From Calditrichaceae bacterium (GTDB lineage Bacteria > Calditrichota > Calditrichia > Calditrichales > JBFXGD01), in contig JBFXLE010000002.1 in the NCBI GenBank assembly GCA_050173015.1, positions 96,001 through 160,000 of the forward strand: a stretch of DNA of 64,000 bases, written 5' to 3'. Below are positions 1 to 14,835 of the stretch, piece after piece. The translations under genes and the position numbers were made by a program. The stretch's first letter is position 1. Every line of letters starts with the position of its first letter. Under the pieces are notes generated by a model. That model saw only the letters and a list, made by a program, of their open reading frames with translations, was not told the DNA's origin and did not search any database.

Positions 1-2
1 AT

Positions 3-1127
3 ACGGGCCTGGGCAGGGCGCCTCTTAATCCTGAATTGTTGAAAAATTTAGATCAAATCGGCCGTTATACAAACCTTGAGATCCAGTTGGAAAACGGCAG
101 AAGGGGACAGCGAAACGATCATTTATCACGATTACTCAGCATATTAACCGGGGCTGAGGATGGCCTTGCTGTTAATAATAATGCCGCCGCGGTAATGCTT
201 ATGCTCCATAGCCTGGCAAATCGTAAGGAAGTCATTCTCTCGCGCGGCGAAATGATTGAAATTGGCGGCGCTTTCCGTATGCCCGAAGTCATAAAAATGA
301 GCGGTTGTAAACTGCATGAAGTCGGCACTACAAATAAAACACATCTGGATGACTATGAAAAGGCAATTAATGAGCGCACTGCCGCCATATTAATTTGCCA
401 TCCGAGCAATTTTGAAGTGAAGGGATTCTCTCAAAAACCTGATATTAAAGAAATTATTGCAATCGGGAAAAAATATAAAATTCCTGTGATCTATGATCTT
501 GGAAGCGGATCGTTGTTAGATACCACTAAATTTGGATCTGATTCAGAACCTGTTGTTTCGGATATTATCGCCATGGATATCGATATGGTGTCCTTTTCCG
601 GTGATAAACTTCTCGGAGGCCCGCAGTCAGGCATTATTGTCGGCAAGAGACGCTGGATCCGGAAGTGTGCCAAAAATCATTTGCTGAGAGCTCTCAGGCT
701 GGATAAAATTATGATCAGCCTCCTGCAGAAAACATTAATTCAATATTTAGAGGGGGATGCTGTCCTTCAGAAATTGGATGCTCTGCAGTCCCTTACGTTA
801 AAAGCTGAAAAATTAAAAAGTCGCTGTGAAAAAATTACAGAAAAATTACCGGAATCAGTAAAGAAAAGCATAAAAATCATTCCATCCTCAGGAAAAGTCG
901 GGAGCGGGGCTTATCCCTTAATGCCGCTCCCCTCATATGTCCTGCAAATTAAATCTGAACATCTTCGCCCTGATAAACTGGCAAAGAAATTCAGAACCCG
1001 GGCGGTGCCTGTATTTGTGAGGCTTGAAGATGAATCAGTGCTGATTGATCTGAGAACTGTGAGCAGTGATGAAGAGGCGGAATTGAAATCCGCTCTGATT
1101 GATTTGATACCGCGAATAACTGAGTGA
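3..1127 (+). CDS. selA: L-seryl-tRNA(Sec) selenium transferase, 5'-truncated by the window edge
   Basis: Frame is open from nt 3 (TGLGRAPL, matching the SelA HTNLGRAP motif); NNNAAAV, SRGEMIEIGGAFR, EVGTTN and PLP-lysine motif SFSGDKLLGGPQ. Confidence 0.96.
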   Translation, partial: TGLGRAPLNPELLKNLDQIGRYTNLEIQLENGRRGQRNDHLSRLLSILTGAEDGLAVNNNAAAVMLMLHSLANRKEVILSRGEMIEIGGAFRMPEVIKMSGCKLHEVGTTNKTHLDDYEKAINERTAAILICHPSNFEVKGFSQKPDIKEIIAIGKKYKIPVIYDLGSGSLLDTTKFGSDSEPVVSDIIAMDIDMVSFSGDKLLGGPQSGIIVGKRRWIRKCAKNHLLRALRLDKIMISLLQKTLIQYLEGDAVLQKLDALQSLTLKAEKLKSRCEKITEKLPESVKKSIKIIPSSGKVGSGAYPLMPLPSYVLQIKSEHLRPDKLAKKFRTRAVPVFVRLEDESVLIDLRTVSSDEEAELKSALIDLIPRITE

Positions 1128-1577
1128 TACCTATTATTTTAATCTAATATTCCCCGGATTTGAGCAGTTCCGGTCATTCCGCGAGAAAGATAAAAAAAAT
1201 CGCCTGATTAAAAATTCAAAATTTCAATGATTTATTCATCTTAGTGATTCCCCGTTCAATTACCGCACTTTTTTTAATCGATGTTTTGTCCCTGATTCAA
1301 GTCATATAAAAACAATGGTTAACAATGCTTTATTAATCGAATTCAGATAAAAATATTCTATGCGGACAATAATGTACCGCTTATTTGTCATTGTATGAAT
1401 AATCAGAGTAAAAAGTATGTGAAAAAAAATTTAAATTATAATGGAATTAATTGCTTACAGATTTGTATATTTTGTGTATTGATCCATGTTTAATTCAATT
1501 TTCGTCTTGGGATAGAATGAAAAGAAAAATTTCAATAAACGCCATTTTATCATGCTTTAGATGAGTAGGAGGTATTA

Positions 1578-2972
1578 ATGGATTCACCATTTTTCTTGAT
1601 TGGCGTCGTAATTCTGGTACTTGCACTGGGCTTTCTTATATTTTTCATGTTTCGGCAATACCAGAAAGTAGGACCTAATGAAATCTTAATTATTTCAGGC
1701 GGACGTAAAAATGTTGTGACCTCACCCGATGGTATTCAAAATGAAATCGGATTTAAATACAGAATCGGAGGGGGCGCTTTGGTAAATCCGTTCACTCAGC
1801 GGGTAGAAAGACTGCCTATTGAGGTGATCCCTGTCGGTGCCAAAATTCCCGAAGTATTATCCAAAAACGGTATTCCTATCACGGCGGAATTTACCGCGCA
1901 GGTTAAAATTGATACCAATGATTATTCATTATATCTCGCCATTACCAACTTTTTAAGCCGTGGAACCGAGGGCATTCTGGAAGTCTCCACAACCGTTCTT
2001 GAAAGCATGGTGCGTGAAGTTATCGGTACTTTCACTGTGGAAGAGATATTTACAAAACGGAACGAATTCTCAAAAAGAGTCAACGAAGCGCTTCGCGTGG
2101 ATTTTTCGAAAATGGGATTGGTTCTTATGTCGTTTGGTTTAAAAGAAATCAGTGATTCCCAGGGATATATCGAGGCGCTGAGCAAACCGCATATCACGGC
2201 AGCCAAATATCAGGCGGAAGTTGACCGGGCCGAAAAGGACAAAGAAATAACGATAAAATCAGCCCAGGCTAAAAAAGAAGGGGAAATCGCCAGACTTGCC
2301 GCCGAAGCCGAAGTTGCCAAAGCATCATGGAACAATGAAGCAAAAAAGGCTGAATCACAGGTCGATGTGAACCAGAAAAAAGCGCGCGCGGATATGGCTT
2401 ATGAACTTGAGCGATTTAAAATTCAGCAAAATCTCAAAAAAGAAGAATATGGCGTCAAAAAAATTGAAATGGAAGAAGCAACCAAGCTCGAAGAGATGAG
2501 TATCAGGAAAAAACAAAAAGAGCTGGAAGCGAATATTTTAAAACCCGCGGAAGCCAGAAAATTTCAGGTTAAAACGGAAGCAGACGCGGAACGTTACAGG
2601 ATTGAAACCGAATCCAAAGGAAAACTCGAAGTCAGAAAACAGGAAGATGCCGCTGACGCGGACAGGATTAAAATGATCGGTAACGCGGAAGCGGAATCAA
2701 TGGCTAAGAAGTCAAAAGCTTACGAATCATACAATCAGGCGGCCATGTATGAAATGATCATGGAGAAGATGCCGGAGATAGCCAGAGCGGTTTCTGAGCC
2801 CCTGTCAAAGCTGGATAAAATTGTGATGATTCAAAATGACGGCAAGTTAGGAACATCAAAACTGACCGGACAGATAACCGATATCATTGCTCAGTTGCCA
2901 GAGGTGGTCGAGGCGCTTACCGGGGCGGATATAAAAAAAATTATAAAGAAAAAAACATCGGATGAAGGCTAA
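1578..2972 (+). CDS. Flotillin / SPFH (band 7) family membrane protein
   Basis: N-terminal TM helix, SPFH region (PNEILIISG, GGG, LKEISDSQGYIEAL), long A/E/K-rich coiled coil, flotillin C-terminus (MPEIARAVSEPLSKLDKI); RBS AGGAGG. Confidence 0.9.
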   Translation: MDSPFFLIGVVILVLALGFLIFFMFRQYQKVGPNEILIISGGRKNVVTSPDGIQNEIGFKYRIGGGALVNPFTQRVERLPIEVIPVGAKIPEVLSKNGIPITAEFTAQVKIDTNDYSLYLAITNFLSRGTEGILEVSTTVLESMVREVIGTFTVEEIFTKRNEFSKRVNEALRVDFSKMGLVLMSFGLKEISDSQGYIEALSKPHITAAKYQAEVDRAEKDKEITIKSAQAKKEGEIARLAAEAEVAKASWNNEAKKAESQVDVNQKKARADMAYELERFKIQQNLKKEEYGVKKIEMEEATKLEEMSIRKKQKELEANILKPAEARKFQVKTEADAERYRIETESKGKLEVRKQEDAADADRIKMIGNAEAESMAKKSKAYESYNQAAMYEMIMEKMPEIARAVSEPLSKLDKIVMIQNDGKLGTSKLTGQITDIIAQLPEVVEALTGADIKKIIKKKTSDEG

Positions 2973-3076
2973 AAGGGACAAAACCTTTCTTTAGGTAATT
3001 ATAATTTTTAAACGCTGGTTCCGTTTTTGATATACGGGAGCGAATTTAAGGAATAATTTTTGACAAGGGGAAAAGA

Positions 3077-5422
3077 GTGGTCTCCGAACGGATAAAGAAT
3101 ATCAACATCTCGCCTACTATAAAAATTGCGGCAAAAGCGATCGCGATGAAATCAGAGGGAATAGATGTGGTGGATTTCAGTGTCGGCGAACCTGATTTTA
3201 CCACACCGCAGTTTATTAAAGACGCCGCGAAGAAAGCAATTGATCAGGATCTGACGAAATATACCATCAACAGGGGAATTGTCCCCTTGAGGAAGGCGAT
3301 TGCAAAGAAACTAAAGGAAGACAACAACCTTGAATATGATATTTCCGAAATTATTGTATCCAATGGCGCCAAGCAGGCTCTGTATAATGCAATTCTCTCA
3401 GTTGTAAATCCGGGTGATGAAGTCATTGTTCCCGCGCCCTATTGGGTATCATATCCCGAAATGGTGCTGCTCGCTCAGGGAAAGCCGGTCATCATTTCAA
3501 CAAAGGAGGAGAACGGATTCAAAGTGACTCCTGATGAACTTCGTAAGGCCATCTCCGCGAACACAAGGGCAATTATACTCTGCAATCCGTCAAATCCAAC
3601 CGGCGCGGCATATAAACGGAGTGAACTGCAAGCCCTGGCCGAAATAGTTGAAAGTGAAGATATCTTTGTTATTGCTGATGAAATATATGAGAAACTGGTC
3701 TATGATGATTTTAAATTTATCAGTTTCGCGTCACTAAGTAATAAAATCAGACAAAAGACCATATTGATTAATGGGGTCTCAAAAGCGTATGCCATGACAG
3801 GCTGGCGGATTGGATACGCGGCCGGACCTGCTGAACTTATCAATGGCGCGGAAAAAATTCAAAGCCACAGCACTTCGAACGCTTCAACTATTTCGCAATA
3901 CGCGAGCCTGGAAGCGTTAAACGGCCCGCAATATGAAATCTCCCGGATGACCAGTGAATTTCAGAAACGGCGTAATTACATCATGTATAAACTCGGAACA
4001 ATACCCGGTGTGTCCTGCCATAATCCTGAAGGCGCGTTCTATGTGTTTCCGAATATTTCTTCTTTCTTTGGGAAAGAATATAACGGCACTTATATACGTA
4101 ATTCTTACGGACTGGCCTACTATCTTTTAAGAGAAGCAAAAGTTGCGTTAATACCGGGAGCGGCTTTCGGAGCGGATGATTATATCCGTATTTCCTACGC
4201 GACATCGATGAAAAATATTGAAAAAGGCATGGAGCGCGTTACAGAAGCTTTGATGAAGCTGAAAACACCCGCGAGTGTAAAACATACAAAACTTAATAAC
4301 ATGGTCACCAGTCTTAAAAAACAGGTTTCAGTCGACTCAACCCTGAATATTGAAAAACGTGACGCTCTTGTGGCTGAAGCGGAAGCCCAGCTCAAATATG
4401 ATCGATATTTTGAATGGAACGCCAATATAAACGGGGTAATTGTGCAGTTAAGGACGAATAACGGGCATCTTTACGATTTCTGGATGGAGAACTGGTATCC
4501 GGCGCAGCTTGAAGCCGATATCGAGCCACACGGAATTATTTATGCCGTCGAAGGAGCCGTTGGAAGGGAGCCTTACGGATTTTACAATTCGGAAACAAAA
4601 ACGGGGATCCTGTTCAATAGCGATTATTACGGTTCTTTACGGAGCCTGGCATTAGGCCTGGTAACCGATGTTGGAGAACGTTTGTTTGATTTACACGCCC
4701 TGCGCGCCATGTCGGCTGATTATTCCGGGGCAGGATTTGCTGTGATGGGTCCGAAGGGAACGCATAAGACAGAGCTCTTCTACCGGCTTCTGCAGAATGA
4801 AAACATTGCCCTTCATTCAAACGATATAGTATTTGTGCGCTATGGGGGAGGATACGCTGCGGCGGATAATCCCGAACGGAAATTATACATCCCCACAAAT
4901 TCCGCCAGCGTGTTTCAAAGACTCGGTGAATTATTTGATCGCAGTAAATGTGAAAATGTGGTAATGAGCAAAGACGATTGCAAAAATCAAAAATGCCAGG
5001 CATTAGAAGAGTGCTCTCTTGACCGCGGCTATCCGTATTGTTATGAAGCGTCAAAAACCTCCGCCGCAATGCTCGATCCATACTGGATCGGCGGTATGCG
5101 CAAACATGTGAAACGCATTGATATCAGCACGGTATTCATATTAAAAAATGATCCAATCGGAAACGCCATCTCATTAATGGATCCTGATGAAGCGGTGCAG
5201 ATTCTGGAAGCCGGTTTTTCAAGCGGCGCCGTAATGGAAGAGGGACGGGGCAATTTGCCGTTCTATAATCCGCATTTATTATTGAAGACAACAGAGCGGC
5301 TGGAATTACAGAAAAAATCATTCCGCAAATTATTTAAGTCCGCCGCGTGTTATTCAGTAAATACCGGCGCCGGGAACTTGTCGGAAATTCAAAACCGTAT
5401 GATAGAAATTTTGTCAAAATGA
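3077..5422 (+). CDS. Aspartate aminotransferase (class I/II, subgroup Ib-like) fused to a C-terminal degenerate PEPCK-like domain
   Basis: aa 1-~395: GEPDF, SNGAKQAL, CNPSNPTG, DEIY, PLP-lysine SKAYAMTGWRIG, GAFYVF, RISYA. aa ~425-781: PEPCK-like motifs in the same order as the next gene (see findings). GTG start with upstream GGGG RBS. Confidence 0.88.
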   Translation: MVSERIKNINISPTIKIAAKAIAMKSEGIDVVDFSVGEPDFTTPQFIKDAAKKAIDQDLTKYTINRGIVPLRKAIAKKLKEDNNLEYDISEIIVSNGAKQALYNAILSVVNPGDEVIVPAPYWVSYPEMVLLAQGKPVIISTKEENGFKVTPDELRKAISANTRAIILCNPSNPTGAAYKRSELQALAEIVESEDIFVIADEIYEKLVYDDFKFISFASLSNKIRQKTILINGVSKAYAMTGWRIGYAAGPAELINGAEKIQSHSTSNASTISQYASLEALNGPQYEISRMTSEFQKRRNYIMYKLGTIPGVSCHNPEGAFYVFPNISSFFGKEYNGTYIRNSYGLAYYLLREAKVALIPGAAFGADDYIRISYATSMKNIEKGMERVTEALMKLKTPASVKHTKLNNMVTSLKKQVSVDSTLNIEKRDALVAEAEAQLKYDRYFEWNANINGVIVQLRTNNGHLYDFWMENWYPAQLEADIEPHGIIYAVEGAVGREPYGFYNSETKTGILFNSDYYGSLRSLALGLVTDVGERLFDLHALRAMSADYSGAGFAVMGPKGTHKTELFYRLLQNENIALHSNDIVFVRYGGGYAAADNPERKLYIPTNSASVFQRLGELFDRSKCENVVMSKDDCKNQKCQALEECSLDRGYPYCYEASKTSAAMLDPYWIGGMRKHVKRIDISTVFILKNDPIGNAISLMDPDEAVQILEAGFSSGAVMEEGRGNLPFYNPHLLLKTTERLELQKKSFRKLFKSAACYSVNTGAGNLSEIQNRMIEILSK

Positions 5423-5478
5423 AATAGTCACAAAGAAGTATGAATCTGAAATTTTGATCATTTAACGGGAAGTCTGAT

Positions 5479-7320
5479 ATGTCAAAAGATGTATATAACG
5501 AGGCGTATTACAAAAAATTTTATAATGAGCTTATCCCAATTCTCAATGGTAAAAATATTAGAACGGTTGATATGGGCTGGCTCGAACGACAGGCCAGGAG
5601 TTTCGCGAATAAGACAAATTATGGCTCCTATGTGTGGTCATCAAAGATATCAAACCGCCTCGCGGCCAAGACTGTTTACCTCGGGAGTGAAAAGGTTCGT
5701 CTGCCAAAGCCGACCGCAGAACATCTTAAACTGATTGAAAACGCGCCGGAGCAGCTTGAAAAAGTCCTGCATCTCGTAAAAACCCTGCCATTTGTCCACG
5801 TTCGCCGTCAAATGGGCAACAATGATAAGTTTAATCCCGTATGCGATTTTTATGTCAGCACAGTTGATCCAAAGAATGTCCGGCTGGCCTATATGTGGGG
5901 CAGCACCATGTTTGATGTCTCCTCAAGACCCGGACCTAATTTTATAATGATTCATATCCCCGAAGAACACATGCTAAGATCTCAAATCCTGGCGCTTCCG
6001 GAGTATAATCTTAATATCGCCCTTGGGTCTGACTACCTCGGGGAGGATAAAAAAGGCTTTTTGAGACAGGCTATGTGGAGAGCTGATGAGCAGGGGATGC
6101 TTGGATTGCATTCCGGCAGCAAGATTGTAAAAGTACGCGATCCCAGGGAAGGAAGATTAAAAAAGTACGGTGTATTCTTGTTTGGAATGACCGCGACCGG
6201 AAAATCAACATGGTCTTGTCACCAGTTGGGACTTGATCAAGAGAGAGGTGAAACTACTGAAGTCGGTCAGGATGATATAACGTTTCTCGCTCCCGACGGC
6301 TCGGCGCTCGGTTCTGAAAATAATTTCTATGTAAAAACGGATGTCATGCCCGATCAGCAGGAAGCCATGTACAACGCGTTAATAGACAAGTCCGCGCTGA
6401 TCGAAAATGTTATGCTGGATGCTAAGGGTGATCTTGATTTTCTGGATGAGAGCCTATGTGGAAACGGTCGCGCGGTAGTGTTCAGAGAAAAATTACGTGT
6501 AAAAAGGGGCAACAAGCTCATCAACATCAGCGCTCCTACAATCAACCTGCCGACTCTTGATGAAATGGACGGATTAATTTTCGCTTTCATTACTCGCAGA
6601 AATACCATCATGCCGTTTGCTCAGGAGTTAACTCCGGAACAAGGAGTTCTTGCCTATCTTTGGGGTGAATCGACGCACAGTTATGCTTCAAGCCCGGAAA
6701 AGGCGGGTGAATCGGTCAGAATAGTAGGAACCGACCCGTTTATTATCGGATCTCGAGGCAAGAAGGTAAATCGTTTTCATGATATTATCATGATGCTTGT
6801 CGATAAATATCCCGGCAAGATCCGTTTTATGATGTATAACACCGGCGGCATGGGTGAGATTATTGAAGACATCGAAGAGAACGGAAGCATCAGGAAAAAA
6901 ATGGTTAGAAAAACAGACAGGGTACCGCTGAGTCTTATGGCTGCCATTCAACGCGGAGATTTGAGAGGCACCAATACCTATGAAGATGGAATTCTAGGCA
7001 CAAAATCAATTGTGGCAGTAGAAGGAAAGCCGATCCCCGAATATGATATCAGCAATTTTTATACGCCTGAACAGATCGATTATTATATTAAAGATCTTGT
7101 GGATGGGCGAAAAAAATACACGAATCTCATCGCATCCGAGGGATTGAAGCCGGAAATCATCAGGGCCGCGGAGAAGTCATTCCGTATTGATCCTTCTCAG
7201 CGCAAAGAGATGTTCACCGTGCCATTCTCAACCGGTAAAGAAAAAGAACCTGTTGTGCTTATAAAATCGGATGAACCCGTCTCCCGACCAAGGAAACCCG
7301 GAAGCTGGCGGTGGCGTTGA
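5479..7320 (+). CDS. pckA: Phosphoenolpyruvate carboxykinase (ATP-type fold), divergent
   Basis: DYLGEDKK (Y-x-G-E-x-K-K), GMLGLH, P-loop FGMTATGKST, QDD metal motif, ENNFYVKT, LIENV, NGRA, YNTG. Confidence 0.82.
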   Translation: MSKDVYNEAYYKKFYNELIPILNGKNIRTVDMGWLERQARSFANKTNYGSYVWSSKISNRLAAKTVYLGSEKVRLPKPTAEHLKLIENAPEQLEKVLHLVKTLPFVHVRRQMGNNDKFNPVCDFYVSTVDPKNVRLAYMWGSTMFDVSSRPGPNFIMIHIPEEHMLRSQILALPEYNLNIALGSDYLGEDKKGFLRQAMWRADEQGMLGLHSGSKIVKVRDPREGRLKKYGVFLFGMTATGKSTWSCHQLGLDQERGETTEVGQDDITFLAPDGSALGSENNFYVKTDVMPDQQEAMYNALIDKSALIENVMLDAKGDLDFLDESLCGNGRAVVFREKLRVKRGNKLINISAPTINLPTLDEMDGLIFAFITRRNTIMPFAQELTPEQGVLAYLWGESTHSYASSPEKAGESVRIVGTDPFIIGSRGKKVNRFHDIIMMLVDKYPGKIRFMMYNTGGMGEIIEDIEENGSIRKKMVRKTDRVPLSLMAAIQRGDLRGTNTYEDGILGTKSIVAVEGKPIPEYDISNFYTPEQIDYYIKDLVDGRKKYTNLIASEGLKPEIIRAAEKSFRIDPSQRKEMFTVPFSTGKEKEPVVLIKSDEPVSRPRKPGSWRWR

Positions 7321-7391
7321 TTCGTGTGATCCGGGATATAAATGATAATATCAGACAGATTATGATCAAGAAAACCATGCAGGAATGATCG

Positions 7392-7808
7392 ATGGAGAGA
7401 ACGTTAGCTATTATAAAACCTGACGGTGTCGCGGCCGGACTTATCGGTGAAATCATCAGCAGAATAGAGAAGGAAGGTATTAATATTATCGGGATGAGGC
7501 TGGAACATCTCGACCGGCGGAAAGCGGAAGGATTCTATTTTGTTCACCGCCAAAAACCTTTTTTTAATTCACTCATAGATTATATGACTTCGGGACCGTG
7601 TGTCCTGATGATACTGGAAAAAAACGATGCTGTCAAAAGCTGGAGAAGCCTGACCGGTGTGACAGACCCGGCAAAAGCGGCCAGAGGGACCATTAGGGGG
7701 GATATGGGCACCAGCATCGAAAGAAATGTGGTACACGGTTCCGATTCGCAGGAATCCGCTTCATTTGAGATTAATTACTTTTTTAAAGGAACAGAAATTT
7801 TTAAATAG
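7392..7808 (+). CDS. ndk: Nucleoside diphosphate kinase
   Basis: ERTLAIIKPDG, SGP, GTIRGD, catalytic NVVHGSDS. Confidence 0.97.
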   Translation: MERTLAIIKPDGVAAGLIGEIISRIEKEGINIIGMRLEHLDRRKAEGFYFVHRQKPFFNSLIDYMTSGPCVLMILEKNDAVKSWRSLTGVTDPAKAARGTIRGDMGTSIERNVVHGSDSQESASFEINYFFKGTEIFK

Positions 7809-7898
7809 AACATTCGCCTTGACAATTGTTTGATTTCTTTCGATTTTTAATCCATTAAAATATTCAGATAACCTTTATTTATTAACTAGTCAAATATA

Positions 7899-9809
7899 AT
7901 GAATAAACATACAATCATTGGTATGGCCGGACATATCGACCATGGCAAAACCGCTATTATCAGAGCCTTAAGCGGCATCGAAACCGATCGTCTTAAGGAA
8001 GAGATAGAACGCGGGATTACGATCGATATAGGTTTTGCTTATTGGAAGAACAATGTAACTATTATTGATGTACCCGGGCATGAACGTTTTGTAAGAAATA
8101 TGATAGCCGGCGTTAGTACAGTTAATTTGTTTTTGCTGGTCATAGCTGCAGATGACGGTATCATGCCTCAAACGATAGAGCATCTGGAAATTCTAAAATT
8201 TTTTGGGGTGGGTAACGGTGTTGTCGCCTTAAACAAGTCAGATCTGGTGGATGATGATTGGTTGTCATTGGTACGGGAAGATATAGATCAATTTCTTTCC
8301 GTACACGGATTTAATAATGTACCCGTGATCCCGGTATCCGCCGTAAAAGGCGATGGTATCAGTGAACTGGAAATGGTACTCATGCAAAAAATAGAGGGAT
8401 TAAAGCATGTTGAAAATGAGAGACCATTCAGGCTGAATGTGGATCGCAGTTTTTCCGCAAAAGGCTTCGGATCTGTTGTAACCGGTACAATCTTATCATC
8501 GGTGATTAAAACAGGAGATCGCGCTGAAATTCTGCCGGCCTTTAATGAAACGCGCATTAAGGGTATACAAGTCCATCAGCATGAAGTCGTGGAAGCGCAT
8601 TCTGGTCAGCGGGCTGCTGTTAACCTGGCCGGTGTAAACAAAGAAGAATTACCGAGAGGGGTAGTGATAACAGAACCGGGTCTGATAGCCACCGCATCAG
8701 AATTTCTTGCTGTCATTACCACAGTATCAAATCTCAAATTTAAATTAAAGAAACATATGACGGTAAGAGTGCATCTTGGAACCGCTGAATACACGGGAAA
8801 AATATTTTGGTTTGATGACCAGCGTTCACCGGGAGCCAGTGAAATGCTGCATGTCCGGATTAAAGTAAATGAGACGGCTGTCACGGCACCGGGGGATCCT
8901 GTTCTAATAAGGAGCTTCTCTCCGGTCACGACGATTGCAGGTGGTCGGGTACTGGAAATCAATCCACCAAAACTAAGACGTGATCCAAAAGTCTGGGATG
9001 CTTACTTTGGGATTCTAAAAAATGGCGGTCTGAATGACAAAATTAAGCAGATGTTCAGTTTTTCTGGATACAGATCGATCACAAACAAAGAAATTCAGCA
9101 AGCATGGTTCGAAAGACCTGAAAAAATTGATGATATTTTACAGAAGCTCGTAAAACAGAATGCGCTCATTGTTTTCGAGCAAAAAAATATCCGGCATTTT
9201 ATTTCTACAAAGAAATTAGAAGAGGGGCAGTATCAGATAATAGATATGCTCGGAAAAGAATTGTCTGAAAAAAAATATAAAAAAGGGCTGAATTTTAAAG
9301 AAGTTTTTAATCTCGCAAAGAAAATGCAAATGAGTGAAGTATTTCTTGAACGCGTATTGGGAAGAGGCGTAAATACCGAATCCATCTTTTTCAACGGAGA
9401 AGTGTATTTCACGGAAAATATAAAAAAATCGCGGGAAATGGACGTTATCAGGGAAAAAGTTGAAACCCGTTTCAGACGTGACCGGTTTACCGTGCCGGAT
9501 CTTCCGGCATTAGCAAAAGATTTCAATGTTTCCCTGCAAGACGCCAAAACAATCTCAGGTGAGTTGGTTAAAGATGGTATTCTCATCTCAATCAATGGTC
9601 AGTTTTATATACACAAAGATTCACTTGGGGACCTGATTTCTTTTCTAAAGCAACATTTCGAAAAAAACGATGAATTAGAGGTCACCGGCCTGAAAGATTT
9701 TTTAGACAGCAGCCGAAAATATGTAATTCCCCTGATCGAATATTGTGACCGGGCGGGATATACTATTAGGAAAGGAAACAACAGGGTAAAAGGCGTTTTT
9801 CCGGAATAG
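7899..9809 (+). CDS. selB: Selenocysteine-specific translation elongation factor
   Basis: [31 protein letters not shown], GTPase beta-barrel domains, C-terminal winged-helix SECIS-binding motif [11 protein letters not shown]. Confidence 0.96.
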
Positions 9810-9878
9810 CGTAATAAAACGCGTTAAAGAAATTTCAAATTTATCATGTAAAAAATGTTAATATCGGTGTGGTCGTCA

Positions 9879-10703
9879 ATGAAATCTTTGATAAAAAAAA
9901 TCAGCCTATATATTATAATTCTACTGATTTGTATCTGGATTATCGCACCATATTTATGGCAGCTGCTGACTTCTTTCACACCAACATCGGAAATTGCCAA
10001 GTTACCACCGCTGATGCCTTCACGAATCGATATCACTCATTATGCCGCTGTTCTGAATGATATTAATTTCAGACATTTTATCATAAATAGTTTTATTGTC
10101 GCCACCATAACCGCTTTGTTTTCAATCGCCTTAGGTTCCATGGCATCCTTCGCTACCGCAAAACTCAAGTTTAGATTTAAACCGCTGGTTTTAAGTATTA
10201 TCCTCGCCGTATCAATGTTCCCACCGATTGCCATTGTGAGTCCATTGTATCTGATGATCCGATACGCGCAGCTGAGAGATACATATCTTGCGCTGATTTT
10301 ACCATATACATCATTTGCATTGCCATTTATGGTCTGGACTCTCCATAACTTTTTTCGGGAGATACCTGATGAAATTCTTGACGCGGGAAAAATTGACGGA
10401 TGCAACACAGGGCAATTATATTCAAAAATAATTATTCCGCTTACGCGACCGGCCATATTTACAACGGGAATACTTGTTTTTATTTTTGCGTGGAATGAGT
10501 TTATTTTCGCGTTGACTTTCACATCCACACCATCAGCGCAAACCATACCGGTTGGGATCGCCCTGTTTCCGGGTATTTATGAGGTTCCATGGGGTGACAT
10601 CGCCGCCGCATCCATAGTAATTACGCTGCCATTGATAATCCTGGTGATGATATTGCAGAAATATATAATTTCAGGTTTGCTCTCAGGATCAGTTAAAGGA
10701 TAA
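9879..10703 (+). CDS. Carbohydrate ABC transporter permease (MalG/SugB-like)
   Basis: Six hydrophobic segments, EAA loop (IPDEILDAGKIDG), AWNEF, SGSVKG end; ATG at 9879 preferred over 9855. Confidence 0.88.
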   Translation: MKSLIKKISLYIIILLICIWIIAPYLWQLLTSFTPTSEIAKLPPLMPSRIDITHYAAVLNDINFRHFIINSFIVATITALFSIALGSMASFATAKLKFRFKPLVLSIILAVSMFPPIAIVSPLYLMIRYAQLRDTYLALILPYTSFALPFMVWTLHNFFREIPDEILDAGKIDGCNTGQLYSKIIIPLTRPAIFTTGILVFIFAWNEFIFALTFTSTPSAQTIPVGIALFPGIYEVPWGDIAAASIVITLPLIILVMILQKYIISGLLSGSVKG

Positions 10704-10913
10704 GGCCGAAAACATCACATTTGGAGTCATTGAAGCAGATTGTTAATCCGGATTCTGAATTCCCGAAATAAAACACATGAGGATATGAGGACATAATGAT
10801 AAAGGCATCACGATTGAATGACAACAAATAAATTGTTCTTATAAAATAAATTGTTTCATAATCATTTTTTTTTATATTTGTAGGACCGCAAATATTGATG
10901 AGGTAAAGTTTTT

Positions 10914-11396
10914 ATGGATTTAAAAATCGTAAAAATCGATAAACCTGAAGATATGAACTTCATATTAGGCCATTCCCATTTTATAAAAACCGTTGAAGAT
11001 ATTCACGAAGCAGTCATGAACGTTAATCCTTCCATAAAATTCGGTCTGGCGTTTTGTGAAGCTTCTCAGGAGGCGCTTGTACGATTCAGCGGGACGGATG
11101 ATGATTTAATCGAGTTAGCCAAGAAAAACGCGCTTAATTTAAGCGCCGGACACAGTTTTATACTGTTTCTCGGAAATGCTTTTCCGGTAAATGTGCTGAA
11201 TACCATCAAAATGGTGCCGGAAGTAACGAGAATATTTTGCGCGACCGCAAATCCTGTGGAAGTTATCCTGGCTGAAACCGGACAGGGGAGAGCTATTTTA
11301 GGCGTCGTTGACGGCATGAAGACAAAAGGTATTGAACAGGAAAAAGATATCAAAAAAAGAAAAGATTTCCTGCGAATGATCGGATATAAATTTTGA
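10914..11396 (+). CDS. Adenosine-specific kinase family protein (DUF355/COG1839)
   Basis: NFILGHSHFIKTVED, FGLAFCEAS, AGHSF, CATANP, GVVDG, LRMIGYK family signatures. Confidence 0.88.
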   Translation: MDLKIVKIDKPEDMNFILGHSHFIKTVEDIHEAVMNVNPSIKFGLAFCEASQEALVRFSGTDDDLIELAKKNALNLSAGHSFILFLGNAFPVNVLNTIKMVPEVTRIFCATANPVEVILAETGQGRAILGVVDGMKTKGIEQEKDIKKRKDFLRMIGYKF

Positions 11397-11425
11397 GAAC
11401 ATGGCACGGTAATTCCGGGGAGTGA

Positions 11426-12046
11426 ATGGAAAATCTCTTAGACCTATATGAATTCTACATCCAAACGCAGCCATCATCGGGTAAAGTAAAAACTGCAACG
11501 ACAATGCTTATTCATGTGTGTAAAGCTCTTGATGTAAATGCTCCTGAAGAAGTAACCGTCGATTTATTTGAAGAAATACCACGCGCTATAGGCGAATTTT
11601 ATCAGTCATCCCCGGGTAAAGCGCTGCACGATAAAAGTGTGCTTGCGGAAATGATCGGTCATTACGGTCCAAGAGACGGATGGGAAAAACCTTTTGAATA
11701 TCTGCTAAATGATCCCGATGAAAACCTGCGTCAGTTCACATTATCTGCCCTGCAGTTTTACGGAGAAACGCATAGCGAATCGATTATTCCGTATATCGAA
11801 AGGTATAAAAACTCTGAAAACCAGCTCATTAAAGATGTAACCGCCAATCTCGTGGGAAAGCTGTTATGTTCAGAACATTCCGAGCCCCTGAAAATGAGAC
11901 TAAAAGAATGGGCGGAGAACGGTGACCGGGAATTTATAGATAATGTAGGCAGATTTCTGGAGAATCAACTCAGCAGAAATGAAAACATCACTAACACGGA
12001 TATAGGCGAGTGGTTCCGGGTTATGTTTGAGGACCATACTAAATAA
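11426..12046 (+). CDS. Hypothetical protein with C-terminal HEAT-like repeats
   Basis: 206 aa ORF with GGGGAG RBS; HEAT-like LLNDPDENLRQFTLSAL segment. Confidence 0.6.
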   Translation: MENLLDLYEFYIQTQPSSGKVKTATTMLIHVCKALDVNAPEEVTVDLFEEIPRAIGEFYQSSPGKALHDKSVLAEMIGHYGPRDGWEKPFEYLLNDPDENLRQFTLSALQFYGETHSESIIPYIERYKNSENQLIKDVTANLVGKLLCSEHSEPLKMRLKEWAENGDREFIDNVGRFLENQLSRNENITNTDIGEWFRVMFEDHTK

Positions 12047-12080
12047 AACGCAATTATAATGCAGCTCAACCGGTATAACG

Positions 12081-13052
12081 ATGAATTCAATCACAAATAA
12101 AATCATATATGTCATGTCTCTGACGTTTCTGGTCTCCTGTTATCAAATGCCCGGAGAAAAAGAGCCGCCAAAAATCGAAGATACGGGCTATCAGTTTTAT
12201 TCAATGGCTTATGCTTCCTATCAGGCCGGGCAATTTGATAAGGCTTTGGAGCAAATTGATAAAGCTATCCGGTTGAACAGGTATATTGCTAAATTTTTTC
12301 ATCTTAAAGGTGATATATTCATTGCAAAAAAAGACCCGGATAAAGCGCTTACCGCCTATGAGCAGGCGGTGTCGTTAAGGTCTTTCAGCCCCGATATTTT
12401 GGAAAAGATGGCACAAATTTATATCGAAAAAGGTCAGTTTGCCGACGCGATACAGAGCAAGAAAAAAGTTCTTGTTAACCGGCCGGAAAAATATGACCAG
12501 CATCTTGATATTTCAGAGCTCTATTTAAAACTCAACCAATCAGATTTTGCCATGAATTCCGCGGGAGTTTATAAAAAAGAGATCACCGAAAAAAAATTAA
12601 TTCTAAGCGGCAGATATTTCCAGATCATGGGCCGGATATATTATGCGAAAATTGATTATGAAAATTCTATTATCTTTTATTTAAAAGCAGTTCAAACCGG
12701 ATTCAGTCTGGAGCCCGGCGATAATCAAAAATTTTTGTTTTCATATTTCGGGTTAAAACAGTATGAAAACGCGTATAATTATCTTCTGCGGTTAAAACCG
12801 GAAAACCTGCCGGAAGCGGATATTCATTTTTTCAGAGGATTATATTACTATAACAAACAGAATTATAAAGACGCTCAAACGCAGCTGGAACTTTCTCTGC
12901 AAAAAAAGACCGGTATCAATAAAGTCTATCTTTACCTCGCCAAAACCTACCTTAAAGTTGGAAAAAACACCGATTCGGATACCATGTTTGATGTTTATAA
13001 AAAAATAACCGGGTTCGATTCATGGAATGATGAATTCAGCGTTAATAATTAA
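12081..13052 (+). CDS. TPR-repeat lipoprotein
   Basis: Signal peptide with lipobox LVSC; repeated TPR patterns (A..Y..G...KA..., Y..LA..Y). Confidence 0.75.
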   Translation: MNSITNKIIYVMSLTFLVSCYQMPGEKEPPKIEDTGYQFYSMAYASYQAGQFDKALEQIDKAIRLNRYIAKFFHLKGDIFIAKKDPDKALTAYEQAVSLRSFSPDILEKMAQIYIEKGQFADAIQSKKKVLVNRPEKYDQHLDISELYLKLNQSDFAMNSAGVYKKEITEKKLILSGRYFQIMGRIYYAKIDYENSIIFYLKAVQTGFSLEPGDNQKFLFSYFGLKQYENAYNYLLRLKPENLPEADIHFFRGLYYYNKQNYKDAQTQLELSLQKKTGINKVYLYLAKTYLKVGKNTDSDTMFDVYKKITGFDSWNDEFSVNN

Positions 13053-13146
13053 TTGAGAATTTTATCATCTCTTACAATCTGACGATCCTATCCAAACCAG
13101 ATAATTTTTTCACAATTCTATCATTTTTTATTCTGTCAGGAAGTAC

Positions 13147-13175
13147 TTGGAATATTGTTTAAATATTTTTAGATT
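13147..13175 (+). promoter_or_regulatory. Putative sigma70-type promoter for the mutM operon
   Basis: TTGGAA-17 bp-TAGATT, 47 bp upstream of the ATG. Confidence 0.35.
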
Positions 13176-13222
13176 ATATTTTTATTTATCATTGATTTAA
13201 CAGAGATTATTACGATACTGAT

Positions 13223-14023
13223 ATGCCAGAATTACCAGAAGTCGAAACAGTCGCGGGTGAACTCAGATCCTTGGTTACAGGAAAAGTGATTGGCGATGTC
13301 AGGCCTTTTTGGGCTAAATCATTTCAAAACAAGTCTCAGGAACCGTTGACCGGCCAAAGGATTGAATCAATAGGACGTAAGGGAAAATACCTTATATTTC
13401 GGCTTTCGAATACGTTCTTAATTATTCATTTACGAATGACCGGCCAGCTTATTTATCAAACTAATACAAGTAGTATGTCAGAAAATCATGTTCGGGCTAA
13501 AATCAACTTTGATGACGGGAGTTCATTGAATTTTAAAGACACCCGTAAGTTCGGACGGATTTATCACGTGGATCACGATGAATCGTTTCTGGAGAAGGTG
13601 GGTTGTGATGCTCTCGATCCGAAAATGGACGTCGGTACATTTACAAAATTATTGACGCTCAGCAGGATGAGTATAAAAGCATTTCTTCTTTCTCAGAAAT
13701 ATATTTCGGGGCTCGGTAATATTTACGTTGATGAATCTCTTTTTCGGGCAGGGATCCATCCCGCGGCATCAGCGGCGGAAATTTCTGCTCAAAGCGCGGG
13801 AGAACTTTTTCGGGTTCTTCAGCAAGTTTTGAGAGCGGCTGTAAAAAATATGGGAACTACAATATCCGACTATCGGGATGCTTTTGGGAATTCAGGTAAT
13901 AATCAGCGTTTTTTGAAAGTTTACGGAAGACAAGGCTTACCCTGTAATGTATGCGGCACCCCGGTAAAGAAAATCAAATTGGCGGGAAGAGGAACTCATT
14001 TTTGTCCGATGTGTCAAACCTGA
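13223..14023 (+). CDS. mutM: Formamidopyrimidine-DNA glycosylase
   Basis: MPELPEVE N-terminus, RKGKYL, HLRMTG, GLGNIYVDE, C-terminal zinc finger CNVC..RGTHFCPMCQ. Confidence 0.97.
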   Translation: MPELPEVETVAGELRSLVTGKVIGDVRPFWAKSFQNKSQEPLTGQRIESIGRKGKYLIFRLSNTFLIIHLRMTGQLIYQTNTSSMSENHVRAKINFDDGSSLNFKDTRKFGRIYHVDHDESFLEKVGCDALDPKMDVGTFTKLLTLSRMSIKAFLLSQKYISGLGNIYVDESLFRAGIHPAASAAEISAQSAGELFRVLQQVLRAAVKNMGTTISDYRDAFGNSGNNQRFLKVYGRQGLPCNVCGTPVKKIKLAGRGTHFCPMCQT

Positions 14024-14040
14024 AAATGAGGATTAACAGA

Positions 14041-14835
14041 ATGGAAGATAGACAAATTGTAACTTTTTTGAGTGATTTTGGAACACTTGACGGCTATGCC
14101 GGCAGTGTCAAAGGCGTCATAAAATCACTCGCGCCGGCTGCTGAAATCATTGATATCACGCATGAAATTGCCGCCTTTGATATAAATGCCGCGGCATTCA
14201 CGCTGATGAATTTCTACTCTTATTACCCAAAGGATACCGTTCACCTCGCGGTGGTCGATCCCGGAGTTGGCGGGGCGCGCCGCGCTTTAATAATCCGGAC
14301 CGCCCATCATACCTTTGTCGGTCCTGATAATGGTATTTTTAAGTATATCCTGTCCAGGGAGGCATACACATCCTACGAAATAGATATCAATAAAATATCC
14401 GGTGGGGCCGAAAGTTCGACTTTTCATGCCAGGGATATCTTTGCTCCCGTTGTGGCGAAACTGTTAAAAGGCGTACCCATGCACAAACTTGGACGAAAAC
14501 TGGATAACAGGACGGAAATGCCTCATGCTTTTTTTGCAAAAGAAGGCGGAGAGTTAGCTGTTGAACCCATCGCCATCGATCGGTTCGGGAATATTATTAC
14601 CGGTTTTTCAAGAGCGGATCTGTTCAGGCTAAAAAAGGAAAAAATAACATCAATCACGACAAAAAAGTTTAAAACATCGGAGATAAACAGATATTATACT
14701 GAAAAAGAACCTGGAGAGCTTTTAGCCTTATGGAACAGTCAAAATTATCTTGAAATAGCTGTTTGCAGAGGGAGTGCCAGGGAAATACTGGATTTCAATC
14801 CTGTCAAAGACAGAATTTATTTAAAATTTGAATAG
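14041..14835 (+). CDS. SAM hydroxide adenosyltransferase (DUF62, SAM hydrolase family)
   Basis: SDFG, DITH, VVDPGVG..RR, GPDNG, TFHARDIF, DRFGN; ATG 14041 has a GAGGA RBS. Confidence 0.9.
   Translation: MEDRQIVTFLSDFGTLDGYAGSVKGVIKSLAPAAEIIDITHEIAAFDINAAAFTLMNFYSYYPKDTVHLAVVDPGVGGARRALIIRTAHHTFVGPDNGIFKYILSREAYTSYEIDINKISGGAESSTFHARDIFAPVVAKLLKGVPMHKLGRKLDNRTEMPHAFFAKEGGELAVEPIAIDRFGNIITGFSRADLFRLKKEKITSITTKKFKTSEINRYYTEKEPGELLALWNSQNYLEIAVCRGSAREILDFNPVKDRIYLKFE

Follow-up and report, generated by a model that had tools for sequence, protein, structure and literature searches.

Conserved neighbouring genes for a flotillin, an aspartate aminotransferase fused to a pseudo-PEPCK domain, and a PEPCK suggest an enzyme assembly for aspartate, oxaloacetate and PEP

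We find that a flotillin gene, a gene in which an aspartate aminotransferase (AspAT) is fused to a remodelled PEPCK paralogue, and a PEPCK gene form a conserved unit, and the recurrence of this arrangement in several bacterial phyla hints at a hitherto undescribed assembly of enzymes that would handle aspartate, oxaloacetate and PEP. The unit lies in a window of 64,000 nucleotides (the whole stretch of DNA that was analysed) from a Calditrichaceae bacterium. PEPCK and AspAT are textbook enzymes of the PEP–oxaloacetate node, where carbon is directed to gluconeogenesis, to anaplerosis or to the use of amino acids. With a conserved PEPCK paralogue that does not catalyse, this node would gain a new layer of organization or regulation in anaerobes common in sediments, namely Calditrichota, Ignavibacteria, Aminicenantes, Bathyarchaeia and Asgard archaea. 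It would also correct the annotation of hundreds of ‘aminotransferases’ of ~780 aa and ‘PEPCKs’ of ~900 aa, and would provide both a natural test system for the channelling of labile oxaloacetate and a tractable case of what bacterial flotillins scaffold.

All genes of the block are on the + strand. The flotillin gene (positions 1578–2972, 464 aa) is followed after 104 bp by the fusion gene (3077–5422, 781 aa), after a further 56 bp by the PEPCK gene (5479–7320, 613 aa; product P0002) and, 71 bp beyond that, by ndk (7392–7808, 138 aa). The GTG start of the fusion gene fits its homologues, which are 776–792 aa long and open with M[LVI]SE[RK]. A sequence-only reading of this DNA had already singled out the last three genes as co-oriented, with gaps of 56 and 71 bp and no evident terminator; the ORF coordinates agree with this, as does a simple consensus scan of the + strand, which found no terminator-like site in either of these gaps or in that between flotillin and fusion. 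The sole nearby site on the + strand (7737–7756) falls within ndk, and terminator-like sites show no enrichment overall (8 found against 11.1 expected). The four genes thus share one strand, short gaps and gaps without an intrinsic terminator, and on these grounds the block from flotillin to ndk is a putative single operon. Its promoter is likely to lie within the AT-rich intergenic region of 450 bp located 5′ of the flotillin gene (1128–1577; GC 0.36–0.38), in which we found no ORF of at least 60 aa (short ones of 29–43 aa only), no Rfam family in a scan of positions 1–12000, and no sigma-70-like site on the + strand using a consensus that may not suit this lineage (34 sites overall against 27 expected). 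Short-gapped, co-oriented trios of genes are commonplace in bacteria; what goes beyond chance is that the arrangement is kept in other phyla, for PEPCK and not for NDK.

This is apparent from 80 related loci, all of AspAT-fused forms, which were kept from a search with a four-sequence alignment as query and which come from MAGs of Calditrichota, Ignavibacteria, Bacteroidota and Aminicenantes/Acidobacteriota. In 65 of 72 loci the gene directly 3′ of the fusion encodes a PEPCK. A flotillin homologue is found directly 5′ and on the same strand in all 69 loci where 1500 bp or more of sequence is available upstream; every other gene cluster is confined to 30 or fewer of the 80, and the genes flanking the triad vary between lineages. 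The conserved unit is therefore flotillin, AspAT–pseudo-PEPCK fusion and PEPCK. The sequence-only reading had proposed a metabolon of fusion, PEPCK and NDK, with conservation of the gene neighbourhood as one check, and it is partly supported: fusion and PEPCK are syntenic across phyla, and the domain concerned is a PEPCK paralogue; the flotillin gene it overlooked, and NDK drops out. NDK comes next after PEPCK in three of the 51 loci with room for it (L001, L037 and L056; L004 has it too, with too little room, and was left out of the 51) and so stands outside the module, as a lineage-specific neighbour. Its own identity is clear (PF00334, E 6e-55, 185.3 bits over the full profile; 196.9 bits for NF001908, above the equivalog cut-off of 155). 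The flotillin gene encodes a FloT-like SPFH/Band 7 protein with a hydrophobic N-terminus and both expected domains (PF01145, E 1e-25, 91.2 bits; PF15975 Flot, 28.7 bits against a threshold of 27), which aligns over its full length with the FloT model NF058507 at 300 bits, below the equivalog cut-off of 700.

The order could in principle reflect nothing more than common descent or block transfer of independent genes, that is, an AspAT with a relic domain, a PEPCK and a flotillin, without any coupling between them. The evidence for coupling consists of gene order and fusions, and some MAG taxon labels (Eubacteriales, Chromatiales) look at odds with the sequence relationships, so that judging by labels may overstate how widely the arrangement is spread among phyla. 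We nevertheless regard independence as quite improbable, given that the genes flanking the triad are not conserved between lineages, that a relic would have to retain 52–73% identity and 82 near-invariant positions, and that the same domain has been fused independently to PEPCK in archaea. Transfer of the block as a unit could partly explain the conserved order across phyla, and to that extent counts against the domain serving as a tether.

Turning to the fusion protein, AspAT and C-terminal domain are in one open frame at 78 of 80 loci. In the window, the N-terminal half (residues 1–397, positions 3077–4267, + strand) is a class I aminotransferase domain resembling subgroup Ib: Aminotran_1_2 (PF00155) matches residues 30–387 at E 1e-75, with 255.5 bits against a gathering score of 19.7 and coverage of profile positions 2–360 of 361. 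The closest solved relative is aspartate aminotransferase 1j32 (387 bits, residues 3–391, full length), whose FAKTYAMTGWR aligns with SKAYAMTGWR of the fusion, the PLP-lysine motif, in which we take the lysine to be the PLP ligand. The top NCBIfam models are aspartate transaminases, with scores below their equivalog cut-offs (NF004769, 460 against 617; NF041091, 442 against 550), and near solved relatives include bifunctional aspartate/prephenate aminotransferases (5wmh); for these reasons the assignment as an AspAT carries a substrate specificity that we infer.

The C-terminal half (residues 401–781, positions 4277–5422 including the stop codon, + strand) is a PEPCK paralogue whose homology is visible only at the level of profiles and fold. 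It had no match in Pfam at E ≤ 1, kinase models included, matched neither a PEPCK nor an HPr kinase model in NCBIfam, and retrieved nothing at E ≤ 10 from PDB sequences with phmmer; BLASTP against the adjacent PEPCK gave E 0.55 only. Alignment of its family with the neighbouring PEPCK family by hhalign extends over 245 columns (95.7%, E 9.6e-9), and the AF2 model (pLDDT 91.4, pTM 0.91) has PEPCKs as all of its listed Foldseek matches, those of the ATP type first (E 1e-17, TMq 0.68–0.75). The domain lacks about the first 110 residues of PEPCK. Profile match, predicted fold and the replaced catalytic residues described below all concur with the name ‘pseudo-PEPCK’, which the sequence-only reading had given to it.

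The replacements were counted in 35 fused sequences, with P0002 numbering for PEPCK positions and residue roles (lysine pair, His, P-loop Gly, first Asp, Arg) after E. coli PckA. K191 has become R in 34 of the 35 and K192 S in 33; H211 is R in every one; G241 is K, H, N, Q or S; D265 is N in 26; and the position of R331 holds Y, A or H. K242 (35/35) and D266 (33/35) are kept. In place of the former residues the pocket has acquired R522, S523 and R543, fixed in 33–35 of the 35 sequences. The altered P-loop, GPKGTHKT in the window (fusion residues 558–565, positions 4748–4771, + strand), has lost the second Walker-A Gly and kept Lys and Thr: G558, G561 and K564 occur in all 35 and T562 in 34, position 563 is K, H, N, Q or S and never G, and 120 fusion homologues conform to GPxGT[KHQNR]K[TS]. 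Since part of the P-loop and residues that in PEPCK bind the catalytic metal and the substrate are replaced, it is very unlikely, judging by these residues, that the domain catalyses the PEPCK reaction; and since the replacements are themselves nearly invariant, selection still acts on the pocket, which is probably a metal-free anion binder. In agreement, 82 of the 381 positions of the domain are conserved in at least 34 of the 35 sequences, its identity stays within 52–73%, and its median identity to the window is 57%, compared with 63% for AspAT and 64% for PEPCK, pointing to purifying selection. The domain also carries a Cys-rich insert, C-x4-C-x5-C-x8-C (fusion residues 635–655, positions 4979–5041, + strand), which is missing from PEPCK and is a gap in the alignment with the archaeal N-domain; C635 and C646 are invariant in the 35 sequences, position 640 is C in 29 and H in 6, and position 655 is C in 29 and S in 6. 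The insert is modelled with pLDDT 78–86 and may be a metal site.

Such a pocket could belong to a ligand sensor, with the domain binding a nucleotide, PEP, oxaloacetate or another phosphorylated or carboxylated anion and thereby tuning AspAT (in bacteria) or PEPCK (in archaea) allosterically, with neither tethering nor channelling of oxaloacetate. The pocket is not decaying (R522, S523 and R543 are fixed, and G558, G561, T562 and K564 kept), and the exchange of metal ligands for arginines, with Lys and Thr of the P-loop retained, would fit metal-free anion binding. Moreover, seven of the 72 loci have flotillin and fusion with no adjoining PEPCK (L023, L031, L052, L055, L063, L075 and L077), and the motifs of the domain are intact in all five of these that were displayed, so that the fusion can persist without a PEPCK gene beside it. 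A sensor would leave unexplained, however, the PEPCK gene that comes next in 65 of 72 loci and the 88 clusters in which the domain is fused to PEPCK, unless PEPCK is the target, in which case the explanation merges into the main one. We consider a sensor possible, if on balance doubtful. It may be added that the near-invariant pocket suits a passive tether no better than a ligand sensor.

The adjacent PEPCK is a member of a divergent ATP-type clade. It matches PEPCK_ATP (PF01293) over residues 166–400 only (E 8e-21, 74.7 bits against a gathering score of 26.5) and NF006821 over residues 41–561 with 278 bits, below the cut-off of 369, and it aligns with T. cruzi PEPCK (1ii2), catalytic motifs included. 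Across 35 orthologues there is no variation in YxGExKKG, H211, GMTATGKS, QDD or R331, and with its catalytic motifs intact the enzyme looks active. Set against known ATP-type PEPCKs (PckA; 1aq2, 1oen, 1ii2, 1yvy), the window holds two relatives: P0002, which shares PF01293 and the catalytic motifs and differs by its divergent clade, its sub-cut-off NF006821 score and a tail of ~50 residues ending in RPRKPGSWRWR, and the fusion C-domain, which shares fold (TMq 0.68–0.75) and profile-level homology and differs by its missing N-terminal ~110 residues and by replacement of the lysine pair, His, P-loop Gly, first Asp and Arg. The tail (residues 565–613, positions 7171–7317, + strand) consists of a variable linker and then, at its very end, the conserved basic-aromatic peptide (positions 7285–7317, + strand), with the consensus RPRRPGxWRWR, in which R603 and P604 are invariant. 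Of the 57 orthologues that are complete, 29 terminate in WRWR and a further 11 in FWRSR; RP[RK][RK] is found in all 15 tails displayed. The peptide may be a docking or membrane-binding element.

An independent link of the domain to PEPCK comes from archaea. Of 104 matches, 88 combine the remodelled domain with a PF01293 PEPCK in protein clusters of ~880–913 aa, mostly archaeal, the domain being joined directly to the PEPCK N-terminus. In one such protein, P0144, the N-domain is 32% identical to the window C-domain (E 8e-55) and the PEPCK part 40% identical to P0002, the alignment with which stops at residue 563 of P0002, the archaeal fused PEPCKs being devoid of the tail. This fusion is a stronger argument for functional pairing than any the sequence-only reading had. 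A single-chain AF2 model of P0144 (pLDDT 87.9, pTM 0.70) neither establishes nor excludes a fixed packing of the two halves against each other. A quick LG+G4 tree, whose branches are long and whose outgroup is distant, makes the AspAT-fused clade (support 99) sister to the PEPCK-fused clade (support 100), both nested among stand-alone forms with canonical motifs; the two fused domains would thus be of common origin, their sister relationship having an SH-aLRT of 87 only.

In these stand-alone relatives the P-loop is canonical (APTGTGKST), and HSDDW, His and Arg are likewise present; of 30 scanned, 13 weakly match the PEPCK model NF006821 and 15 weakly match HPr-kinase models, the latter far below cut-offs and over ~50 residues around the P-loop. 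Leads from the ESM Atlas are archaeal hypothetical-protein clusters, a small share of them labelled Hpr_kinase_C. HPr kinase/phosphorylases are P-loop proteins of PEPCK-like fold, and one may envisage other chemistry for the fused domain, either a kinase/phosphorylase of that kind acting on PEPCK or AspAT or a metal-independent activity on oxaloacetate; the fused form does retain one Asp as well as Lys and Thr of the P-loop. We give this little credence: in the fused form the second Walker-A Gly, the first Asp of DD, the His and the Arg aligned with R331 are replaced, archaeal P0144 has no P-loop left (GSSENDIA), and a Gly-Lys-Ser/Thr pattern occurs, by a loose regular expression, in only ~16 of 85 archaeal fused proteins. 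Further, as compared with HPr kinases and HprK-related kinases (PF07475, TIGR00679, TIGR04352), which the stand-alone relatives match weakly, the window domain matches no kinase model at E ≤ 1, and its full-length fold matches are PEPCKs rather than HprK.

We suggest, at about an even chance of being correct, that the pseudo-PEPCK domain works as a partner that joins AspAT and PEPCK. It would be the dedicated non-catalytic partner of this PEPCK clade, placed in archaea on one polypeptide with PEPCK and in bacteria on AspAT, where it would draw the two enzymes together so that Asp ↔ oxaloacetate ↔ PEP could run within one assembly. Each AspAT dimer would bring two pseudo-PEPCK domains with it. 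That the assembly may be located at the membrane is suggested by the flotillin gene together with the basic-aromatic tail, which the bacterial PEPCK has and the archaeal form lacks. The direct basis for this proposal is fold, homology, residue pattern, synteny and the archaeal fusion, from which we infer binding, coupling or channelling, membrane location and the direction of flux. A more far-reaching version would make the domain an obligatory partner subunit of the PEPCK clade in archaea and bacteria alike, grafted onto AspAT in the FCB group and Acidobacteriota, and the whole a flotillin-organized membrane metabolon docked through RPRRPGxWRWR. We think this version unlikely; if true, it would be, to our knowledge, the first bacterial flotillin with soluble central-carbon enzymes as conserved clients.

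There are precedents for parts of this proposal. HisZ, a paralogue of histidyl-tRNA synthetase, is a partner subunit of the ATP-phosphoribosyltransferase HisG, and there too a conserved paralogue devoid of catalysis accompanies an active enzyme, as a separate protein or fused; here, in contrast, the paralogue is kin to the presumed partner itself and is grafted onto the enzyme of a neighbouring step, and binding is putative. The mitochondrial malate dehydrogenase–citrate synthase–aminotransferase metabolon handles oxaloacetate, and the proposed aim, to hold this labile compound between two sequential enzymes, would be the same, although its enzymes are unfused and unrelated whereas those here are encoded together with a dedicated adaptor domain and next to a flotillin gene, and channelling is putative. 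As far as the available part of that account goes, the flotillin-associated rhodopsin (PMC10308929) likewise has a flotillin gene as partner, in a conserved place beside a specific client gene, the client being a membrane protein there and a pair of soluble enzymes of central metabolism here. The portions of the literature at hand yielded no account of the fusion, of the pseudo-PEPCK domain or of the flotillin link, and the available part of PMC3534657 merely names Pck in a figure legend.

Finally, a protein of 400 aa (P0127) at first appeared to be the closest stand-alone form of the domain and was rejected as such, as it starts like the last AspAT helix and falls inside the fused clade; most likely a fusion gene was called too short here. 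Some of the stand-alone relatives carry the label PF27840.1, which may be a very recent Pfam entry for the pseudo-PEPCK domain.

We suggest that the C-terminal domain (residues 401–781; the C-domain) of the 781-residue fusion protein encoded at 3077–5422 (+ strand, GTG start) is a non-catalytic partner of the PEPCK clade typified by the adjacent enzyme P0002 (613 aa, 5479–7320, + strand), joining AspAT and PEPCK in these bacteria, a proposal to which we give about an even chance of being correct. By BLASTP the C-domain matched P0002 only with an E value of 0.55, and it gave no PDB sequence match at E≤10 and no Pfam match at E≤1. Sensitive methods agree, nevertheless, with the label of 'pseudo-PEPCK' that the sequence-only reading had attached to it. 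Profile–profile comparison of the C-domain family (49 members) with the family of the adjacent PEPCK (35 orthologues) gave 95.7% probability and an E value of 9.6e-9 over 245 columns, aligning C-domain positions 55–324 with PEPCK positions 112–397 and leaving the C-domain without roughly the first 110 residues of PEPCK. The AlphaFold2 model built from the family alignment (mean pLDDT 91.4, pTM 0.91) retrieved PEPCKs exclusively among the Foldseek matches listed from the PDB (E about 1e-17, query-normalised TM 0.68–0.75); the ATP-dependent enzymes rank highest (among them those of E. coli, T. cruzi, A. succiniciproducens and T. thermophilus), ahead of the GTP type. An exhaustive HMMER search found 187 relatives, which include stand-alone proteins of about 355–410 aa; 30 proteins scanned gave weak matches to the PEPCK subfamily NF006821 in 13 cases and to HPr-kinase-type models in 15. 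The stand-alone family numbers at least 1008 proteins.

The other half of the fusion is readily recognized, since residues 30–387 match Aminotran_1_2 (E 1e-75) and nothing was matched past residue ~400. Its closest solved structures are subgroup-Ib AspATs (1j32, 387 bits); as it also resembles bifunctional prephenate aminotransferases and scores under the NCBIfam equivalog cut-offs, we infer rather than assign its AspAT specificity. At 4061–4102 (fusion residues 329–342) this half carries a nine-residue insertion relative to 1j32, FFGKEYNGTYIRNS against T------G---RSS, which is common to the other fusion proteins inspected.

The putative active site of the C-domain has been remodelled. We mapped PEPCK positions (P0002 numbering) through the profile alignment onto 35 AspAT-fused and 14 stand-alone sequences, taking their catalytic roles to be those of E. 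coli PckA. In the fused sequences the lysine pair K191 and K192 has become Arg (34/35) and Ser (33/35), H211 is Arg in all 35, D265 is Asn in 26 and R331 is Tyr, Ala or His; among the stand-alone proteins these positions hold Lys (9/14), Ser (8/14), His (9/14), Asp (10/14) and Arg (10/14), respectively. Within the P-loop, the second glycine (G241) is Lys, His, Asn, Gln or Ser and never Gly in the 35 fused proteins (Gly in 10/14 stand-alone), whereas the lysine K242 is kept in every one (9/14 stand-alone) and the next residue, S243, is Thr in 28 and Ser in six (Ser in seven and Thr in three of the 14); D266 is likewise kept (33/35, against 10/14). The P-loop pattern is GPxGT[KHQNR]K[TS] among the 120 fusion homologues listed, and the stand-alone relatives mostly retain the canonical states, namely APTGTGKST, HSDDW, the His and the Arg. 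Because catalytic positions are replaced in the fused form while they remain mostly canonical in stand-alone relatives, the fused C-domain is very unlikely to carry out the PEPCK reaction. It is, by the measure of conservation, under no decay: at 82 of its 381 positions no more than one of the 35 fused sequences deviates, and its median identity to the window sequence, 57%, comes close to the 63% of the AspAT half and the 64% of PEPCK.

The exchange of metal ligands for arginines, with the P-loop Lys and Thr kept, suggests that the pocket may bind an anion in a metal-free manner. This bears on an alternative in which the C-domain serves mainly as a ligand sensor, to which we assign a minority share, about one chance in four. 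Some residual catalysis of a different, HprK/P kind is a further alternative and appears improbable. At 4979–5041 (fusion residues 635–655) the C-domain also contains a Cys-rich insert, C-x4-C-x5-C-x8-C, that is missing in PEPCK and in the archaeal fused form; two of its cysteines are invariant in the 35 fused sequences, one position is Cys or His and one is Cys or Ser, so that the insert may be a metal site.

The fusion, PEPCK and nucleoside-diphosphate kinase (NDK; 7392–7808, + strand, 138 aa, full-length family match) had been described as a co-oriented trio with gaps of 56 and 71 bp and no evident terminator, and we recovered the same ORFs and gaps; a consensus scan of the + strand located no terminator-like site in either gap, the only one nearby lying at 7737–7756 inside the NDK gene, and the region as a whole shows no excess of them (eight found, 11.1 expected). 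Such an arrangement is unremarkable on its own, and the test is conservation elsewhere. A contig scan, with one genome per species, revealed 317 stretches encoding C-domain relatives, of which the best 80 were compared; by their record titles these are MAGs of Calditrichota, Ignavibacteria, Bacteroidota, Aminicenantes/Acidobacteriota and Caldisericaceae, although some titles (Eubacteriales, Chromatiales) look mislabelled. The cultured Caldithrix abyssi has homologues as well (P0066 and locus L014). AspAT and C-domain lie in a single open frame in 78 of the 80 loci. The exceptions, L037 (6806–8000) and L056 (6797–8000), have a disrupted AspAT part out of frame with the C-domain and an otherwise intact module, which could reflect a frameshift or an assembly error.

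PEPCK is the next same-strand gene in 65 of the 72 loci that leave 1000 bp or more for it, and the neighbourhood of fusion and PEPCK proposed for checking by the sequence-only reading is thus conserved. The inclusion of NDK in the module did not hold up: it follows PEPCK in only three of the 51 loci long enough to show it, and in L004 outside that count, and we therefore take it for a neighbour peculiar to a few Calditrichia-like genomes and not for a part of the module. In all 69 loci that leave 1500 bp or more upstream, the gene immediately before the fusion, on its strand, encodes a flotillin homologue; in the window this gene occupies 1578–2972 (+ strand; PF01145, PF15975), ends 104 bp before the fusion and scores 300 bits with the FloT model, under the model cut-off. 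All-ORF clustering of the 80 loci found flotillin, fusion and PEPCK to be the only genes common across lineages, the next commonest cluster occurring in 30 loci. A reading in which the C-domain is a mere neighbour of PEPCK, with no coupling, seems to us a long shot. Seven loci of an Aminicenantes-like group have no PEPCK at the next-gene position; in the six with readable order (L075 being the other) the next positions include genes found after PEPCK elsewhere, and the C-domain motifs are kept in the five inspected.

The direct fusion to PEPCK in archaea is, on sequence comparison, an independent link of the C-domain to this enzyme. The archaeal-type single chain P0144 (899 aa; predicted model with pLDDT 87.9 and pTM 0.70, compatible with packed as well as with independent halves) comprises a C-domain-type N-domain followed by a full PEPCK (NF006821, 416 bits, above cut-off). 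Identity is 32% between the window C-domain and this N-domain (E 8e-55) and 40% between P0002 and the PEPCK part of P0144 (E 2e-130). A search with P0144 residues 1–360 returned 104 proteins, of which 88 are of about 880–913 aa with PF01293 and the other 16 are AspAT fusions; the named hosts of the 88 are Hod-, Hel-, Loki- and Freyarchaeota, Bathyarchaeia, Altiarchaeota and Hydrothermarchaeales, and a few bacteria. The P0144 N-domain is remodelled too, with LRS, Arg in place of His and HSND, and its P-loop is gone. In a regex survey of 85 archaeal fused proteins about 34 showed an HS[ND]D pattern (HSND in 28) and only about 16 the canonical P-loop pattern. In a quick maximum-likelihood tree (123 sequences, with a distant outgroup and a warning for long branches), the AspAT-fused and the PEPCK-fused proteins each form one clade (SH-aLRT 99 and 100), and the two are sisters with moderate support (87), surrounded in the tree by stand-alone forms whose motifs are canonical. 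We read this as a single putative remodelling event, after which the domain would have been joined to PEPCK in one line and, in the other, to AspAT with PEPCK as the adjacent gene. Separately, the stand-alone-type protein P0225 (754 aa, outside the window) bears an intein (PF14890, TIGR01445/TIGR01443) at about residues 193–395, directly after a stretch matching C-domain residues 48–165, which ends at the P-loop. Inteins usually occupy functionally critical sites, and the position is a hint of a role for the P-loop in the unremodelled family.

As to the proposed partner, P0002 matches PEPCK_ATP over residues 166–400 only (E 8e-21) and NF006821 over residues 41–561 (278 bits, under the 369-bit cut-off). 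No variation occurs among 35 orthologues in YxGExKKG, His211, GMTATGKS, QDD or Arg331, all of which can be aligned with T. cruzi PEPCK, and the P0002-type enzyme looks active. The bacterial orthologues carry a C-terminal tail of about 50 residues (residues 565–613 in the window, 7171–7317), composed of a variable linker and a conserved basic-aromatic terminal peptide (consensus RPRRPGxWRWR) in which R603 and P604 are invariant; the last residues are WRWR in 29 of 57 complete orthologues and FWRSR in 11. This tail is a candidate docking or membrane-binding peptide. Its absence from the archaeal fused PEPCKs would fit a docking role where the partners are separate chains.

We propose that the C-domain would bring AspAT and PEPCK together for the interconversion of Asp, oxaloacetate and PEP, with flotillin and the basic-aromatic PEPCK tail pointing to a possible membrane location. 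The flux could draw on aspartate for gluconeogenesis, or could supply aspartate synthesis through PEP carboxylation that conserves ATP, the sequence giving no direction. The closest concept is a dead paralogue acting as a partner subunit, e.g. HisZ with HisG, and it is in this respect that the C-domain would resemble HisZ. Taken singly, the parts are familiar: AspAT, ATP-type PEPCK, flotillin and NDK. The titles and abstract openings returned by full-text literature searches mentioned neither a remodelled PEPCK paralogue as a conserved domain, nor its alternative fusions to AspAT or PEPCK, nor the invariant flotillin neighbour of the fusion. Where databases give names, the fusion is a 'pyridoxal phosphate-dependent aminotransferase', the archaeal form a 'phosphoenolpyruvate carboxykinase' and the stand-alone form, with two exceptions, a 'hypothetical protein'; P0469 and P0481 are called 'ATP-dependent phosphoenolpyruvate carboxykinase' in one source. 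Some of the stand-alone proteins (P0418, P0433, P0469, P0475, P0481–P0488 and P0336) bear the precomputed label PF27840.1, so that a recent Pfam entry may exist.

Upstream of the flotillin gene lies an AT-rich intergenic stretch of 450 bp (1128–1577; GC about 0.36–0.38) with no ORF of at least 60 aa and no Rfam match. Downstream, 9855–14835 encodes on the + strand an ABC-type permease (PF00528), an adenosine-specific kinase (PF04008), a 206-aa ORF without family, a TPR protein, Fpg/MutM and a SAM hydroxide adenosyltransferase-like protein, none of them kept beside the module in the ORF clustering of the 80 loci. The four-gene block of flotillin, fusion, PEPCK and NDK is flanked on the same strand by selA (3–1127; PF03841, E 3e-127) and selB (7899–9809; TIGR00475, 362 bits), and looks as if it lay within this selenocysteine-machinery gene pair; locus L001 has a selA/selB layout identical to that of the window, and in locus L048 selB lies about 1 kb 3' of PEPCK.
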